Virus record (IMG/VR): IMGVR_UViG_2740892258_000012
Source of the DNA: a virus
Taxonomy: Duplodnaviria; Heunggongvirae; Uroviricota; Caudoviricetes
Strand: one strand, 5' to 3'
DNA: 5,216 bases
The notes under the pieces are model-generated. The model ran no database searches. It was not told the origin of the DNA and was given only the letters and a program-made list of their open reading frames with translations. Of this stretch, positions 1 to 4,931 are shown piece by piece (positions within the stretch are counted from its first letter, which is position 1; each line of letters starts with the position of its first letter). The position numbers and the translations under genes are program-made.

Positions 1-678
1 TGGATGGCAGGCCTCAGGTCCGGCTGGAGCGAGTGGGAAGAGAGCGCCACGGACAGTATGTCGCAGGTTAAAAGTGCTGCCACGCAGACCTTTGATGGTA
101 TTGCGCAGAATATGGCGGCGATGCTGACCGGCAGTGAACAGAACTGGCGCAGCTTCACCCGTTCCGTGCTGTCCATGATGACAGAAATTCTGCTTAAGCA
201 GGCAATGGTGGGGATTGTCGGGAGTATCGGCAGCGCCATTGGCGGGGCTGTTGGTGGCGGCGCATCCGCGTCAGGCGGTACAGCCATTCAGGCCGCTGCG
301 GCGAAACTCCATTTTGCAACCGGAGGATTTACGGGAACCGGCGGCAAATATGAGCCAGCGGGGATTGTTCACCGTGGTGAATTTGTCTTCACGAAGGAGG
401 CAACCAGCCGGATTGGTGTCGGCAACCTGTACCGCCTGATGCGGGGCTATGCGGAAGGTGGTTATGTGGGCGGTGCCGGAAGTCCGGCGCAGATGCGGCG
501 GGCTGAAGGCATTAATTTTAATCAGAACAATCACGTGGTGATTCAGAACGACGGTACGAATGGTCTGCCAGGTCCACAGATGATGAAGGCGGTGTATGAC
601 ATGGCCCGCAAGGGTGCCCGTGATGAAATCCAGGCACAGATGCGCGATGGTGGTCTGTTCTCCGGAGGTGGACGATGA
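1..678 (+). CDS. H: Tail tape measure protein, C-terminal part (lambda gpH-like); 5' end lies outside the window
   Basis: The frame is open from position 1 and stops at TGA 676-678. The translation (...SEWEESATDSMSQVKSAATQTFDGIAQNMAAMLTGSEQNWRSF...DGGLFSGGGR) matches my recollection of the lambda gpH C-terminus almost residue for residue, including the Gly-rich tract. The stop overlaps the next gene's start (ATGA), typical of lambdoid tail operons. Confidence 0.9.
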   Translation, partial: WMAGLRSGWSEWEESATDSMSQVKSAATQTFDGIAQNMAAMLTGSEQNWRSFTRSVLSMMTEILLKQAMVGIVGSIGSAIGGAVGGGASASGGTAIQAAAAKLHFATGGFTGTGGKYEPAGIVHRGEFVFTKEATSRIGVGNLYRLMRGYAEGGYVGGAGSPAQMRRAEGINFNQNNHVVIQNDGTNGLPGPQMMKAVYDMARKGARDEIQAQMRDGGLFSGGGR

Positions 679-1004
679 AAACCTTCCGCTGGAAAGTGAA
701 ACCCGGGATGGATGTGACATCGGCTCCTTCCGTCAGGGAGGTGCGCTTTGGTGATGGCTATTCCCAGCGTGCGCCTGCCGGGCTGAACGCTGACCTGAAA
801 ACGTACAGCGTGACGCTGTCTGTCTCCCGTGAGGAGGCCACGGCGCTGGAGTCGTTTCTGGCTGAGCACGGGGGCTGGAAGGCCTTTCTGTGGACGCCGC
901 CTTATGGTTACAGGCAGATAAAGGTGACCTGCGCAAAATGGTCGTCGCGGGTCAGTATGCTGCGTGTTGAGTTCAGCGCAGAGTTTGAACAGGTGGTGAA
1001 CTGA
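675..1004 (+). CDS. M: Minor tail protein M (lambda gpM-like), 109 aa, apparently intact
   Basis: ATG at 675 overlaps the H stop. The 109-aa product MKTFRWKVKPGMDV...RVEFSAEFEQVVN has the same length and near-identical sequence to lambda gpM as I remember it. Its stop at 1002-1004 overlaps the next ATG (TGATG). Confidence 0.93.
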   Translation: MKTFRWKVKPGMDVTSAPSVREVRFGDGYSQRAPAGLNADLKTYSVTLSVSREEATALESFLAEHGGWKAFLWTPPYGYRQIKVTCAKWSSRVSMLRVEFSAEFEQVVN

Positions 1005-1858
1005 TGCAGGATATCCGGCAGGAAACATTGAATGAATGCACCCGTGCGGAGCAGTCGGCCAGCGTGGTGCTCTGGGAAATCGATCTGACAGAGGTCGGTG
1101 GAGAACGTTATTTTTTCTGTAATGAGCAGAACGAAAAAGGTGAGCCGGTCACCTGGCAGGGGCGACAGTATCAGCCGTATCCCATTCAGGGGAGTAGTTT
1201 TGAACTGAATGGCAAAGGCACCAGTACGCGCCCCACGCTGACGGTTTCTAACCTGTACGGTATGGTCACCGGGATGGTGGAAGATCTGCAGAGTCTGGTC
1301 GGCGGAACGGTGGTCGTGAAAACGGGGGCTGAAGCCATCCGGGCACTGGCCACACAGCTCCCGGCGTTTCGTCAGAAACTGAGCGATGGCTGGTATCAGG
1401 TACGGATTGCCGGGCGGGATGCAGGAGAAACCGAATTATCATCCCGTCTTAATGAGCCGCTGGCAAATGGTGCCGTGATCCACATCGTGCCGCGTCTTGC
1501 GGGAGCAAAAAGTGGCGGTGTGTTTCAGGCGGTGCTGGGTGCGGCGTTGATTGCTACGGCAATCTGGATGCCGGGGATCAGTATCGCTTTCAGTGACATT
1601 CTCTTTTCAATGGGTGCGGCGATGACGCTTGGTGGTGTGGCGCAGATGCTGGCACCGAAAGCCAGAACTCCCCGTACACAGACAACGGATAACGGCAAAC
1701 AGAACACCTATTTCTCCTCACTGGATAACATGGTTGCCCAGGGCAATGTCCTGCCTGTTCTGTACGGTGAAATGCGCGTGGGGTCACGTGTGGCATCTCA
1801 GGAGATCAGCACGGCAGATGAAGGGGATGGTGGTCAGGTTGTGGTAATTGGGCGGTAA
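1004..1858 (+). CDS. In-frame fusion of tail tip protein L (N-terminal ~105 aa) to tail assembly protein I (C-terminal ~180 aa); probable deletion derivative with K absent
   Basis: Residues 1 to about 105 (MQDIRQETLNECTRAEQSASVVLWEIDLTEVGGERYFFCNEQNEKGEPVTWQGRQYQPYPIQGS...LVGGTVV) match lambda gpL N-terminus. From about residue 106 (KTGAEAIRALATQLPAFRQKLSDGWYQVRIAGRD...KARTPRTQTTDNGKQNTYFSSLDNMVAQGNVLPVLYGEMRVGSRV.SQEISTADEGDGGQVVVIGR) it matches the gpI C-terminal part, including the exact gpI C-terminus. No gpK-like sequence appears in any frame. Junction is near nt 1313-1321. Confidence 0.85.
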   Translation: MQDIRQETLNECTRAEQSASVVLWEIDLTEVGGERYFFCNEQNEKGEPVTWQGRQYQPYPIQGSSFELNGKGTSTRPTLTVSNLYGMVTGMVEDLQSLVGGTVVVKTGAEAIRALATQLPAFRQKLSDGWYQVRIAGRDAGETELSSRLNEPLANGAVIHIVPRLAGAKSGGVFQAVLGAALIATAIWMPGISIAFSDILFSMGAAMTLGGVAQMLAPKARTPRTQTTDNGKQNTYFSSLDNMVAQGNVLPVLYGEMRVGSRVASQEISTADEGDGGQVVVIGR

Positions 1859-1879
1859 TATTATTTTACTCATGTTCTA

Positions 1880-1915
1880 ACTAATTTAATATTTATATCG
1901 AACACTGATAATTAT
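1880..1915 (+). promoter_or_regulatory. Candidate sigma70-like promoter region upstream of the lipoprotein gene (weak)
   Basis: Very AT-rich stretch with a -10-like GATAAT at 1907-1912, but no convincing -35 hexamer at 17-18 bp spacing. Proposed only because the downstream gene sits in an inserted AT-rich segment and probably needs its own promoter. Confidence 0.2.
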
Positions 1916-1931
1916 TCTATTGGTTAGCTAT

Positions 1932-2270
1932 ATGAACAAAACGATTTTATTCTGCACGATTATTGCCTTAACAGGATGTAAATCTTTGGATTACGTAAAA
2001 TCCGGAAAACCTGTAATGGAAGGTAATTCATTAAAAAATATTGATGAATTGTCAGGCTGCATATCCAGACAATGGGCTGGTAATGGAACACCTATAACAT
2101 CCCTTCCTATTGAGAATGGGGTAAGCCTTTTAGTTCCACAGGCTATGGGGGGATATGATGTTGTGCTTGATATCAAAAAAGCAGGAAATGGCAGTAGTTT
2201 TACTCTTTATGAACGTGTACCAGCATTAACGCCAAAAATTTTTGCTGATAGTGTTAATGCATGTAAATAA
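1932..2270 (+). CDS. Putative lipoprotein (moron/cargo gene) of unknown function, 112 aa
   Basis: ORF with ATG at 1932 (the track's TTG start at 1920 is an alternative); TAA at 2268-2270 followed immediately by TAG. N-terminus MNKTILFCTIIALTGC has a basic n-region, hydrophobic core and lipobox L-T-G-C (Cys16), the pattern of a signal peptidase II substrate. Residue +2 is Lys, not Asp, so outer-membrane sorting is plausible. The gene lies in a visibly AT-rich segment between I and J. No recognisable Shine-Dalgarno and no homolog I can name. Confidence 0.7.
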   Translation: MNKTILFCTIIALTGCKSLDYVKSGKPVMEGNSLKNIDELSGCISRQWAGNGTPITSLPIENGVSLLVPQAMGGYDVVLDIKKAGNGSSFTLYERVPALTPKIFADSVNACK

Positions 2271-2294
2271 TAGTTAATCCTGTCGTAACTCATG

Positions 2295-2322
2295 AGCCGC
2301 CTTTTGGGCGGCTTTGTTGTTT
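2295..2322 (+). terminator. Rho-independent terminator downstream of the lipoprotein gene
   Basis: Perfect 7-bp GC-rich stem AGCCGCC (2295-2301) / GGCGGCT (2307-2313) with loop TTTTG, followed by the T-rich run TTGTTGTTT (2314-2322). It sits 25 nt after the lipoprotein stop and just before the J ribosome-binding site (GAGGA 2331-2335, ATG 2337). Confidence 0.65.
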
Positions 2323-2630: not shown

Positions 2631-2862
2631 GACGCTACGACAGCACAAAAAGGAATTGTCCAGCTCAGTAGTGCAACCAACAGCACATCTGAAATGCTGG
2701 CGGCAACGCCAAAGTCGGTAAAGGCAGCCTATGACCTTGCTAACGGGAAATATACTGCTCAGGACGCTACGACAGCACAAAAAGGAATTGTCCAGCTCAG
2801 TAGTGCAACCAACAGCGCATCTGAAACGCTTGCCGCGACACCGAAAGCAGTGAAAGCAGCTA
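2631..2862 (+). repeat. Two tandem 132-nt (44-codon) repeat units at the 5' end of the stf fragment
   Basis: Unit 1 (2631-2762) and unit 2 (2763-2862 onward) both encode [18 protein letters not shown](T/A)SE(M/T)LAATPK(S/A)VKAA. Their first ~68 nt differ at only two positions, while the next ~30 nt carry many synonymous differences. Confidence 0.85.
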
Positions 2863-4097
2863 ATAATAATGCGAATGGTCGGGTACCTTCTGCCCGTAAG
2901 GTGAATGGTAAGGCGCTTTCAGCGGATATAACACTGACGCCGAAAGATATTGGTACGCTTAACTCAACAACAATGTCATTCAGCGGTGGTGCTGGTTGGT
3001 TCAAATTAGCAACGGTAACCATGCCACAGGCGAGTTCTGTTGTTTCAATTACGTTGATTGGTGGTGCGGGATTTAACGTGGGGTCACCTCAACAGGCAGG
3101 TATATCTGAACTTGTTTTGCGTGCAGGTAATGGTAATCCGAAGGGGATTACTGGTGCTTTATGGCAGCGCACATCGACAGGGTTTACAAATTTTGCCTGG
3201 GTCAATACATCTGGTGATACTTACGATATTTACGTTGCAATCGGAAATTATGCGACTGGTGTAAATATTCAATGGGATTATACCAGTAATGCCAGCGTGA
3301 CGATTCATACGTCACCAGCATATTCTGCTAATAAGCCGGAAGGGTTAACGGACGGTACAGTTTATTCACTCTATACGCCATCAGAGCAGTTTTATCCGCC
3401 TGGCGCACCAATCCCGTGGCCATCAGATACCGTTCCGTCTGGCTATGCCCTGATGCAGGGGCAGACTTTTGACAAATCTGCATACCCGAAACTTGCAGCC
3501 GCTTATCCGTCAGGCGTGATCCCTGATATGCGTGGCTGGACGATTAAGGGCAAACCCGCCAGTGGTCGTGCCGTATTGTCTCAGGAACAGGACGGCATTA
3601 AATCGCACACCCACAGCGCCAGCGCATCCAGTACGGATTTGGGGACGAAAAACACATCGTCGTTTGATTACGGAACCAAATCCACGAATAACACCGGGGC
3701 GCATACGCACAGTCTGAGTGGCTCTACGGGGTCTGCCGGTGATCATACTCATGGTAATGGTATTCGTTGGCCAGGAGGCGGCGGTTCTGCGTTAGCATTT
3801 TATGATGGCGGTGGGTTCACTTATGTCCAGGATTCACAGTATCAAGTAAGCCCGGGGACTTCTTCCCGTAGATCGTATTATCAACGTATTCAGACACAGT
3901 CAGCAGGTGCTCATACCCACTCGCTGTCTGGTACTGCAGCAAGTTCTGGCGCACATGCACATACTGTAGGTATTGGTGCGCATACGCACTCCGTTGCGAT
4001 TGGTTCACATGGACACACCATCACCGTTAACGCTGCTGGTAACGCGGAAAACACCGTCAAAAACATCGCATTTAACTATATTGTGAGGCTTGCATAA
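2694..4097 (+). CDS. stf: Side tail fibre protein Stf, C-terminal portion (N-terminally truncated); homology runs upstream to nt 2631
   Basis: The 467-aa ORF ends ...[24 protein letters not shown], the characteristic lambda Stf C-terminus, and carries the conserved [71 protein letters not shown] block and multiple GAH(T/A)HS motifs. The same frame is open from 2631, directly after the J remnant and a TAG at 2628-2630, so the first in-frame ATG at 2694 is at best a fortuitous restart. The N-terminal tail-attachment region of Stf is absent. Confidence 0.85.
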
Positions 4098-4672
4098 TGG
4101 CATTCAGAATGAGTGAACAAGCACGGACCATAAAAATTTATAATCTGCTGGCCGGAACTAATGAATTTATTGGTGAAGGTGACGCATATATTCCGCCTCA
4201 TACAGGTCTGCCAGCAAACAGTACCGATATTGCACCACCAGATATTCCTGCTGGCTTTGTGGCTGTTTTCAACAGTGATGAGGCATCGTGGCATCTCGTT
4301 GAAGACCATCGGGGTAAAACGGTTTATGACGTAGCGTCAGGGGACGAGTTATTTATTTCTGAACTCGGTCCGTTACCGGAAAATGTTACCTGGTTATCGC
4401 CGGAAGGGGAGTTTCAGAAGTGGAACGGCACAGCCTGGGTGAAGGATACGGAAGCAGAAAAAATGTTCCGGATCCGGGAGGCGGAAGAAACAAAAAACAA
4501 CCTGATGCAGGTAGCCAGTGAGCATATTGCGCCGCTTCAGGATGCTGCAGATCTGGAAATTGCAACGGAGGAAGAAACCTCATTGCTGGAAGCCTGGAAA
4601 AAGTATCGGGTGTTGCTGAACCGTGTTGATACATCAACTGCACCTGATATTGAGTGGCCTACGAGAAGGTAA
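4097..4672 (+). CDS. tfa: Tail fibre assembly protein Tfa (lambda Tfa-like), 191 aa, with a variant 3' end
   Basis: ATG at 4097 overlaps the stf stop (TAATG). The product [121 protein letters not shown]... matches lambda Tfa closely. The final residues ...DIEWPTRR* differ from the ...[11 protein letters not shown] ending encoded by the downstream duplicate. Confidence 0.9.
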
Positions 4673-4793: not shown

Positions 4794-4931
4794 CTTCGTT
4801 CAAATCCATTAAAGATATCAGACTACTCTCCGTTGCTGGAGGCATGGAATAAATATCGGGTATTGTTGAATCGTGTTGATACATCAACTGCACCTGATAT
4901 TGAGTGGCCTGCAAATCCTGTCAGGGAGTAA
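4794..4931 (+). pseudogene. Degenerate duplicate of the tfa 3' end (last ~33 codons), same orientation
   Basis: Nt 4833-4910 are about 91 percent identical to nt 4583-4660 of tfa (7 mismatches in 78, last 41 nt identical). The frame reads ...[33 protein letters not shown] with stop at 4929-4931. It is bounded upstream by an in-frame TAG at 4791-4793 and has no start codon or upstream tfa body. Confidence 0.8.

Follow-up and report, generated by a model that had tools for sequence, protein, structure and literature searches.

The window, a stretch of 5,216 nucleotides from the Caudoviricetes virus record IMGVR_UViG_2740892258_000012, carries a horizontally acquired low-GC cargo segment in the tail operon of a decayed lambda-like prophage. 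As shown by comparison with empty sites, this cargo extends from 1859 to ~2290, directly after the stop codon of gene I and upstream of a hairpin that was already there, and it encodes a predicted lipoprotein of 112 aa. We are highly confident of this anatomy and of the status of the gene as a moron encoding a lipoprotein. The family itself is already known (PHROG 914, phiKO2 Gp19), and the window gene as it stands is an ordinary-looking moron. Our best guess for its role, which we hold tentatively from comparative analysis, is that of an outer-membrane-anchored superinfection-exclusion factor that would act independently of the phage receptor-binding domain.

Organization of the I-J locus

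All features described here are on the plus strand. The ORF upstream of the cargo (1004-1858) ends with a TAA codon at 1856-1858. It is a fusion in which the 5′ part of L is joined in frame to the 3′ part of I, with K deleted. By tblastn, L aa 1-106 corresponded to 1004-1321, and the 3′ part of the tail assembly gene I (aa 12-191), which forms the left flank of the insertion, corresponded to 1316-1858 with 100% identity. Two Pfam domains were found in this one ORF, Phage_tail_L (aa 29-107) and Lambda_tail_I (aa 103-168). The original prediction had named the upstream gene I; the Lambda_tail_I part is present, but the gene is not intact. The predicted I stop at 1858 and J ribosome-binding site at about 2331 were both located as expected, the latter as GGAGTGTGAGGA just upstream of the J start codon (ATG, 2337). 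This ribosome-binding site and a truncated J ORF of 77 codons (2326-2570) constitute the right flank. J aa 1-61 corresponded to 2337-2519 (tblastn), and a deletion junction lies past aa 61.

The AT-rich inserted segment between these flanks (~430 bp; 1859-2290) was delimited by the empty-site alignment and the GC profile. It begins with an AT-rich leader of 73 nt (1859-1931) without a clear Shine-Dalgarno sequence, followed by the lipoprotein precursor CDS (1932-2270, 112 aa; ORF list, RefSeq WP_001332187.1), which RefSeq annotates in UTI89 as well. This is the single 112-aa gene with a lipoprotein signal that had been proposed for the segment. GC content was 0.33-0.40 over 1801-2300 in 200-nt windows, against 0.52-0.64 upstream and 0.54-0.585 downstream, in agreement with the claimed difference between an AT-rich segment and GC-rich tail genes. 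The lipoprotein gene itself has a GC content of 0.36, and its 1-kb flanks have 0.57 and 0.50.

Insertion at the I-J junction

In lambda and LF82 Perceval, the aligned I-J spacer has only 60 bp and lacks the lipoprotein gene. Among the full I-J junctions sampled from E. coli, 54 of 58 had the length of the query plus 60 bp (empty) and 4 of 58 that of the query plus 478 bp. The segment matched ~349 places, against ~8720 matches for the I-J junction, and ~96% of lambda-type I-J junctions, whose I and J genes are otherwise nearly identical, lack the gene. The insert replaced ~17-25 bp of the ancestral 60-bp spacer, and its right boundary is approximate (2283-2293). Two of the features that mark a moron (Juhala/Hendrix definition, summarised in PMC3594210) are thus found: an insertion between genes that are adjacent in relatives, here I and J, and a deviating base composition, for which 10 homologous loci showed the same trend. 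The empty sites in lambda, Perceval and the 54 E. coli junctions uphold the claim of an accessory moron inside the tail operon.

With most junctions empty in the alignment to lambda and its relatives, the alternative that the gene is a standard constituent of this region fails. For the same reason, a role in the structure or assembly of the tail tip, which the location among tail-tip genes could suggest, is very improbable: lambda, Perceval and ~96% of lambda-type I-J junctions do without the gene, and the signal peptide would export the protein from the cytoplasm, where tails assemble.

The block 1316-2513 is 100% identical to UTI89, with 543 of 543 nt identical in the I stretch, and the deletion junctions were mapped by blastn against the same genome. 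This identity indicates that the prophage decayed by clean deletions, and the intact state of the gene therefore says nothing about selection. The claimed selection for its retention in a decaying tail region could not be maintained, as the neighbouring I fragment and the greater part of J that remains are equally undecayed and frameshifted copies of the gene are found elsewhere. Within E. coli, 10 synonymous and 4 non-synonymous polymorphic sites were counted, and dN/dS was 0.08-0.31 within the subfamily for pairs with computable dS. The synonymous excess and these ratios argue for purifying selection on the gene. Between subfamilies, dN/dS was uninformative because dS was saturated.

Hairpin and transcription

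A hairpin at 2294-2314, 24 nt past the lipoprotein stop codon, has nine pairs (six G-C) and a 3-nt loop and is followed by TGTTGTTTAT. It reads GAGCCGCC TTTT GGGCGGCTT and, together with its T-rich tail (2294-2324), is terminator-like according to a terminator scan and its fold energy (-17.1 kcal/mol, z = -3.3). The hairpin aligns with those in the gene-less 60-bp I-J spacers of lambda and Perceval. Judging from this alignment, it is a resident element of the lambda I-J spacer and older than the insert at this site. The "own terminator" of the original prediction is hence probably not the gene's own, a matching hairpin being present already in the empty spacers of both phages. In the homologues that occupy other slots, a hairpin follows directly after the stop codon in each.

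A consensus promoter scan of the plus strand returned no sigma-70-like promoter at the threshold. Manual scanning of the leader for hexamers gave TTTACT (1865) and TAATAT (1887) with a spacing of 16, and TTTAAT (1885) and GATAAT (1907), also with a spacing of 16; these reach 8-9 of 12 matches at most. An autonomous transcription unit had been claimed, yet neither the scanner nor these hexamers, with no more than 9/12 matches in an AT-rich leader, provided a convincing promoter. The lack of a convincing promoter is what would be expected if the protein had a late lytic function only, being made with the tail proteins from the late transcript and acting at or after lysis and not in the lysogen, for instance by neutralising envelope fragments, which would then fail to trigger progeny tails, or by modulating envelope breakdown. 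The intergenic distance in the K-I slot, which is too short for a promoter, and the late-operon orientation of the gene everywhere are consistent with such a function, and Cor and Llp protect progeny from debris in virulent phages (PMC11990801). We nevertheless consider a purely lytic role improbable, since the family was found only in temperate-type groups and prophages among 50,697 phage records, and since the hairpin downstream of the gene in every slot makes most sense for stopping transcription before the next tail gene in a repressed prophage.

The lipoprotein and its family

The N-terminus of the 112-aa protein is MNKTILFCTIIALTGC. Its predicted type II signal peptide (1932-1979) comprises the n-region MNK, the h-region TILFCTIIAL (mean Kyte-Doolittle value 2.68) and the lipobox L-T-G-C, which conforms to the pattern [LVI][ASTVI][GAS]C near the N-terminus and places the lipidated cysteine at Cys16 (codon 1977-1979). 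The lipobox is kept in 45 of 45 family members, with G15 and C16 invariant. The residue at +2 is Lys in the window protein, and Asp is absent from this position in all 45 members. Under the Lol-avoidance rule of Enterobacterales (no Asp at +2), the protein is predicted to be sorted to the outer membrane.

C43 (2058-2060) and C111 (2262-2264) are invariant in the 45 sequences, which are 15-38% identical to the window protein, and 43 of the 45 members have exactly two cysteines beyond the lipid-bearing one. These two residues likely form a disulfide pair around the alpha/beta core encoded between them (2058-2264). In the 45-sequence alignment, C16, P27, K35, C43, G63 and C111 are invariant or at least 90% conserved. 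The AF2 model (pLDDT 83.7, pTM 0.76) confidently predicts a compact alpha/beta fold. Its best fold neighbour is Francisella Flpp3 (DUF3568; PDB 2mu4). Flpp3 and the N-terminal domain of BamC are only 6-13% identical to the window protein and have scores typical of a common fold, and no function can be inferred from them. A sequence search of the PDB with the window protein gave no matches.

The window protein matched phrog_914 with E = 7.3e-33 (protein residues 1-112, profile positions 1-118 of 118), the sole PHROGs match at E ≤ 1. The suggestion that it may represent a new family was therefore mistaken (PHROG 914, E = 7e-33, ~370 clusters). The family contains 370 cluster representatives at 50% identity, both of its subfamilies are recovered by the PHROG 914 profile search, and it includes phiKO2 Gp19, which is annotated in its record as "putative moron gene product". 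No model for the family was found in Pfam or NCBIfam, where the lone match was the VirB7 signal peptide (E = 0.08), and the Pfam scan of the window protein returned no family at E ≤ 0.01. PADLOC-DB 2.0 yielded no defence model at E ≤ 1 for the window protein or its Fraca homologue, a scan of GTDB genomes with the subfamily alignment yielded no confirmed locus, and in a literature search WP_001332187 was mentioned in no paper. The family is present in ~6% of complete E. coli genomes and also in Klebsiella, Enterobacter, Serratia and Pseudomonas. It is thus far a family of predicted gammaproteobacterial lipoproteins.

Copies 100% identical to the window gene were found, among the matches listed, in at least six strains (UTI89, APEC O1, S88, IHE3034, NU14 and ExPEC XM). 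As these are extraintestinal pathogenic strains, the gene might be lysogenic-conversion cargo that encodes a host-fitness or virulence lipoprotein in the manner of Bor/Iss, with a role in serum or bile resistance, envelope homeostasis or colonisation. In addition, the family member of Pseudomonas nitroreducens is chromosomal and lies outside a prophage, the fold neighbour Flpp3 is called a Francisella tularensis virulence determinant in PDB 2mu4, and lambda Bor and Lom provide precedents (PMC3594210). However, the strain distribution may simply be that of a single prophage passed down vertically within a single lineage, Bor homology is lacking (hhalign probability 7%; no Pfam Bor-family match), and all phage and prophage loci that were examined have the gene in the tail module, none of them at a usual lysogenic-conversion site. 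We regard a fitness role as rather unlikely; if true, the protein would be a new envelope determinant that ST95-type pathogens carry on a prophage. Two sets of literature data on prophage genes were considered and set aside. The serum-induced APEC prophage gene phiv142-3 orf10 appears to be a different gene, since its knockout primers mismatch the window by eye. Moron transcriptomics of LF82 are inapplicable, the gene being in neither moron list of its lambda-like prophages and the Perceval I-J junction being empty.

Tail-module positions and a possible role in superinfection exclusion

Morons in tail operons have repeatedly proved to be phage-exclusion or host-fitness genes, as with Cor, HK97 gp15, Lom and Bor. 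Members of the present family occupy at least three intergenic slots: I-J in E. coli; K-I in phiKO2, Fraca, LMessi, OS31 and HK97-like prophages of Klebsiella and E. coli; and T-H at loci L035-L040 and L055. The T-H slot is that of the HK97 gene 15 exclusion moron (PMC3594210). In the phage and prophage contexts examined (15-60% sequence identity), the gene was always inside a siphovirus tail module and never at a usual site of lysogenic conversion. Wherever it was seen, it is oriented with the late operon, and in every slot its GC content is lower than that of the flanks and it is followed by a hairpin and a T-run. The five phage records with the family all belong to temperate-type groups (Hendrixvirinae and the linear-plasmid prophage phiKO2), and no family member was found in virulent siphoviruses among the 50,697 phage records.

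E. coli siphoviruses are known to encode exclusion factors beside their J-like hub (PMC11990801). A small outer-membrane-type lipoprotein beside the host-specificity gene may mask the cognate receptor, the possibility that the original prediction named first, inactivating the outer-membrane receptor of J as Cor and T5 Llp do FhuA and thereby blocking superinfection and the loss of progeny on debris (PMC11990801). Such masking would fit the Cor-like placement of cysteines and the short motif Q-[EK]-P-I-x-S-G that subfamily B has in common with Cor. The J receptor-binding ends give a different picture. Identical or at least 99% identical copies of the protein are encoded upstream of four J C-terminal types, of which D cannot be aligned and the other three (A, B and C) show 46-65% pairwise identity. 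The same ends also occur without the gene: 52 phage records have type A (≥95% identity) but do not encode the protein, and Perceval has type B (90-98% identity). The association of one protein with four J ends, and the occurrence of such ends without it, argue against masking of the phage's own receptor in the style of Cor or Llp. In most lineages, moreover, the homologues adjoin K or the tape measure gene and not J, Fraca carries cor in addition to a family homologue, and the homology to Cor and Llp ends at the signal peptide. We therefore judge masking of the cognate receptor to be improbable. The four J ends and the Fraca homologue that coexists with Cor make a step shared by lambda/HK97-type tails a likelier target than the phage's own receptor.

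Superinfection exclusion independent of the receptor-binding domain thus remains our favored reading, and it may operate as follows. After processing by Lsp and Lgt and sorting by Lol, the protein would be tethered to the periplasmic side of the outer membrane and stabilised by the C43-C111 disulfide. A cell carrying the prophage would then be protected against incoming siphoviruses. The step affected might be the crossing of the envelope by the tail tip or tape measure, or the target might be an envelope component that such phages share. In the lysogen, a transcript might begin within the AT-rich leader and end at the I-J hairpin, and in the lytic cycle transcription of the Q-antiterminated late operon might include the gene as well. 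Confinement to the tail module together with independence of the J end makes exclusion a concrete, testable hypothesis. If true, it would represent a receptor-independent envelope defence of relevance to phage therapy against ExPEC and Klebsiella. A more specific proposal, which we offer as a speculation with a modest chance of being right, is a new class of Gram-negative exclusion, in which an outer-membrane-anchored periplasmic lipoprotein specific to siphovirus tail modules lets lambda/HK97-type phages bind their receptor but then blocks genome delivery, whatever receptor-binding domain its carrier has. Interception of the tail tip or of the tape measure protein would be one way to do so.

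Comparison with known systems

The closest known counterparts of the window protein, phiKO2 Gp19 and the other members of PHROG 914, have the same length (111-113 aa), a lipobox and the conserved C43, C111, P27, K35 and G63, and their genes likewise have a GC content below that of the flanks, a hairpin after the stop codon and a place in the tail module. The window protein is only 20-27% identical to the phiKO2/Fraca/OS31 subfamily, however, and its gene lies at I-J with the resident lambda hairpin, whereas that of phiKO2 lies at K-I.

The original prediction found no match to Bor, Cor or Llp, and hhalign likewise limited the homology to the signal peptide. Bor aligned over 15 signal-peptide columns, T5 Llp (query confirmed as 100% identical to T5 llp) over 18 columns of the signal peptide only, and Cor over 32 columns covering the signal peptide and ~10 residues (probability 71%). 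Bor/Iss is a prophage-encoded outer-membrane lipoprotein of ~100 aa carried as moron cargo, as the window protein is predicted to be, but bor adjoins the lysis genes on the opposite strand, whereas the window gene is in the tail module. The tail-assembly-interference systems (Tai) were also considered as counterparts and rejected, since the genes for most of them lie upstream of the packaging module.

Among the exclusion precedents Cor, Llp and HK97 gp15 (PMC3594210), T5 Llp resembles the window protein as a lipoprotein encoded beside a receptor-binding protein gene, and it has the exclusion function that is proposed here. The FhuA-inactivating Cor of phi80, N15, HK022 and T1 is also a small outer-membrane lipoprotein from the tail-fibre/J region of siphoviruses, and both mature proteins carry one cysteine near their start and another as the penultimate residue. 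Cor is shorter (77 aa against 112 aa), the window gene occurs with more than one J receptor-binding type, and in Fraca a homologue coexists with Cor; the exclusion role of Cor nevertheless serves as our working model (PMC3594210). HK97 gene 15 is similarly a tail-operon moron, and some homologues of the window protein occupy its exact slot, from T to the tape measure gene. Both families have chromosomal bacterial relatives. Gp15 is a small inner-membrane protein related to YebO (PMC3594210), whereas the window protein has the signals of an outer-membrane lipoprotein. Gp15 excludes phages without blocking the receptor, which is the mode proposed here, and a lipoprotein that acted after receptor binding would be a functional analogue of both gp15 and the Gram-positive lipoprotein Ltp.

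Organization of the tail region

The window encodes the C-terminus of the tape measure protein (4-678), M (675-1004), an L::I fusion ORF (1004-1858), the AT-rich I-J segment under study (1859-2336), a truncated J (2337-2570), a side tail fibre (2694-4097) and a tail-fibre assembly gene (tfa; 4097-4672). In 200-nt windows, GC content was 0.33-0.40 across 1801-2300 against 0.52-0.64 upstream and 0.54-0.585 downstream, and that of the lipoprotein gene alone was 0.36. The shift in base composition between I and J, initially judged by eye, is therefore real.

A blastn comparison with the UTI89 locus (L001; the fetched locus ends at 18478) aligned window positions 1-1315 with 6012-7326 at 92% identity, representing a different allele. 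The remaining blocks were 100% identical: 1316-2513 (L001 8458-9655), 2513-2628 (10493-10608), 2629-4664 (15416-17451), 4664-4830 (17809-17975) and 4831-4892 (18417-18478). The window is a UTI89-like prophage tail region with clean internal deletions, the junctions being at 1315/1316, 2513, 2628/2629, 4664 and 4830/4831. Missing relative to UTI89 are the 3′ part of L together with K and the start of I, the bulk of J along with lom and the start of stf, and two stretches beyond tfa. This arrangement was found in no complete E. coli genome of the collection (the best covers 58%), and the deletion pattern may stem from very recent decay by deletion or be an artefact of assembly. At its start, the side tail fibre ORF carries a 118-nt direct repeat (2629-2746 and 2761-2878, 83% identical) corresponding to Phage_fiber_2 repeats, and junction 2628/2629 coincides with the start of its first copy. 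A 78-nt direct repeat (4583-4660 and 4833-4910, 91% identical) lies at the tfa 3′ end. A second, partial tfa C-terminus sits 3′ of the intact tfa, as in UTI89; the UTI89 methyltransferase gene between the two tfa ends is mostly deleted in the window.

The survival of the lipoprotein gene in this region had been taken as a hint of selection for retention. The neighbouring fragment of I and the bulk of that of J are equally pristine (1316-2513, 100% identical to UTI89), and therefore its intactness in the window says nothing on selection. Frameshifted or truncated copies occur at other loci (L031, L032, P0002, P0007 and P0018).

Insertion between I and J

In lambda and in the LF82 prophage Perceval, the I-J gap is only 60 bp. 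In the alignment, the window diverges from both right after the I stop codon and realigns at about 2290, giving an insert of about 430 bp. Among 5426 complete E. coli genomes, 4297 contained matches to a junction query joining the I 3′ end to the J 5′ end, 8720 places in all. Of the junctions sampled evenly down the match ranking, 54 spanned the query plus 60 bp and four the query plus 478 bp; cargo of any other size was not seen in the sampled junctions. The 478-bp segment was present at 349 places in 337 genomes, 240 of them at ≥99% identity; among the matches listed, the 100% identical copies include UTI89, APEC O1, S88, IHE3034 and the type strain. Given 349 places against 8720 junction matches, the segment is a minority accessory element and no standard I-J constituent, which bears out the predicted accessory insertion. 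A structural role for the protein is excluded in practice by this dispensability together with its export.

The original prediction also credited the gene with its own terminator. The hairpin at 2294-2314 has nine pairs (six G-C) followed by a T-rich tail (−17.1 kcal/mol, z = −3.3). However, the same resident hairpin is present at the lambda and Perceval sites lacking the gene, folding equally well in all three (lambda GAAACCGCCTGCGGGCGGTTTTGTCATTTATGGAGCGTGAGGAATG, window GAGCCGCCTTTTGGGCGGCTTTGTTGTTTATGGAGTGTGAGGAATG; spacers at lambda L044 746-805 and Perceval L043 37837-37896, window element at 2294-2324). The 60-bp lambda spacer, inside the late operon, holds the conserved terminator-like form GAAACCGCC-nnnn-GGCGGTTTT (about −16 kcal/mol). 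Because the window realigns with the empty sites just 5′ of the hairpin, the latter would lie outside the cargo, and the insert appears to make use of a resident terminator-like element. The lambda hairpin could be what a moron insertion left behind, or a landing pad for such insertions.

As for the proposed autonomous transcription unit, a terminator scan supported termination at 2294-2324. On the other side, no + strand promoter reached the scanner threshold, the best hexamer pairs in the very AT-rich 73-nt leader matched at 8-9 of 12 positions, and no obvious Shine-Dalgarno sequence precedes the gene; an autonomous unit is therefore only putative. The lack of a detected promoter would agree with a function exerted only upon late expression, which we consider improbable.

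The encoded lipoprotein and its family

The ORF at 1932-2270 encodes 112 aa (N-terminus MNKTILFCTIIALTGC). RefSeq annotates the identical CDS in UTI89 as hypothetical protein WP_001332187.1, between a tail assembly protein (I) and gpJ. The locus tag of the UTI89 gene (UTI89_RS29190; L001 9074-9412) is far out of order relative to its neighbours RS07275 and RS07280, which suggests that the gene was absent from the original annotation; older UTI89 transcriptome, proteome and Tn-seq tables may therefore omit it.

The protein matched no Pfam, NCBIfam or PADLOC model but aligned end to end with PHROG 914, of unknown function (E = 7e-33). Relatives from Klebsiella, Kluyvera, Enterobacter and Jejubacter are 48-62% identical to it. 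A second subfamily, at 20-30%, includes proteins of phages Fraca and LMessi, Serratia phage OS31 and Klebsiella phage phiKO2 (Gp19); the phiKO2 record calls Gp19 a 'putative moron gene product; similar to Xanthomonas gene XCC2962' and annotates a putative terminator after it. An exhaustive profile search recovered 370 cluster representatives (E ≤ 1e-3), nearly all matches listed being full-length at 105-125 aa. Thus, the protein is not the founder of a new family, as had been considered, but by sequence a member of the existing, uncharacterised PHROG 914/phiKO2 Gp19 family. What is new here is a further member and I-J as an insertion slot.

In an alignment of 45 sequences, which were 15-38% identical to the window protein, C43, C111 and the lipid-attachment Cys were invariant and P27, K35 and G63 nearly so. 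A lipobox was present in 45/45, Asp at +2 in none, and exactly two further cysteines in 43. These features fit an outer-membrane-sorted (by the Lol +2 rule), disulfide-bonded periplasmic lipoprotein. AlphaFold2 confidently predicted a compact alpha/beta fold (pLDDT 83.7, pTM 0.76). Polymorphic sites within E. coli were 10 synonymous and 4 non-synonymous, and dN/dS was 0.08-0.31 within the subfamily where dS was unsaturated.

Genomic contexts

The near-identical E. coli copies in IMG/VR all occupy the I-J slot. The K-I slot is used in phiKO2, Fraca, LMessi, OS31, Klebsiella prophages with a giant J and E. coli HK97-like prophages. The T-H slot, with tail protein T on one side and the tape measure gene on the other, is used in L035-L040 and by a distant relative (L055); this is where HK97 gene 15, the original moron, resides (PMC3594210). 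Another distant relative is flanked by a tape measure gene and a J-like gene. The family gene had lower GC than its flanks in each of the ten loci inspected, and in each a hairpin plus T-run followed its stop codon, directly before the ribosome-binding site of the next tail gene. In some phages the K-I gap carries other cargo: a KilA-N protein (L034 9403-9912), a 115-aa ORF with no Pfam match (Fraca, L002 6647-6994), or about 4 kb of sequence that includes Bro-N, an HTH/CI-like repressor and two unknown ORFs (L033 6048-10974). In HK97-like and N15-like tails, the gap between K and I is a hotspot for cargo. In A. baumannii ATCC 17978 prophages CP9 and CP14, the 'putative lipoprotein' genes A1S_3759 and A1S_3701 directly adjoin the tape measure gene (PMC3978071); they share the slot of some PHROG 914 homologues, a likeness in position.

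Pseudomonas nitroreducens has a full-length chromosomal member (L052-L054 6001-6342) between Dus-family (tRNA-dihydrouridine synthase), transaldolase and chemoreceptor genes, with no phage genes nearby. Therefore, the phage-borne lipoproteins may go back to a cellular lipoprotein, in parallel to HK97 gp15 and YebO. This homologue and the ExPEC distribution would suit a Bor-like host-fitness role, which is nonetheless unlikely with a family confined to the tail module.

Possible function

No library gave the protein a named function. Its strict link to siphovirus tail modules, kept across widely differing sequences, its export and lipidation signals, and the phage-exclusion precedents of Cor, Llp and HK97 gp15 (PMC3594210; PMC11990801) point to a role related to phage entry. 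In the version first proposed, the lipoprotein masks the receptor of the adjacent J. Among loci with complete J, however, a lipoprotein at least 99% identical precedes four J C-terminal types, of which A, B and C share 46-65% identity among themselves and D cannot be aligned. Type B is the Perceval type (90-98% identity), and Perceval lacks the insert; 52 phage records contain type A at ≥95% identity, and the window protein is encoded in none of them. Moreover, Fraca has a family member plus cor, and most members adjoin K or the tape measure gene rather than J. Masking is accordingly disfavoured and rather doubtful. These five points instead favour exclusion independent of the J receptor-binding domain, a tentative reading that falls somewhat short of an even chance, in which the lipoprotein would act within the periplasm or on the inner side of the outer membrane. 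The independence of the family from the J receptor-binding end is a useful clue, and the family is large, uncharacterised and experimentally tractable.

In its way of working, the protein would most closely resemble the tail-module morons Cor, Llp and gp15; its sequence places it with neither Cor, Llp nor Bor. Cor of Fraca (L002 12579-12812) has Q-[EK]-P-I-x-S-G just after the lipid Cys, as does subfamily B, and both have a penultimate Cys at the C-terminus (…TCK and …ACK/SCL). An hhalign comparison of Cor with the family alignment A6 gave a probability of 71%, mostly from the signal peptide. The motif common to Cor and subfamily B could be coincidental, or could represent a sorting or N-terminal tether motif used by both.
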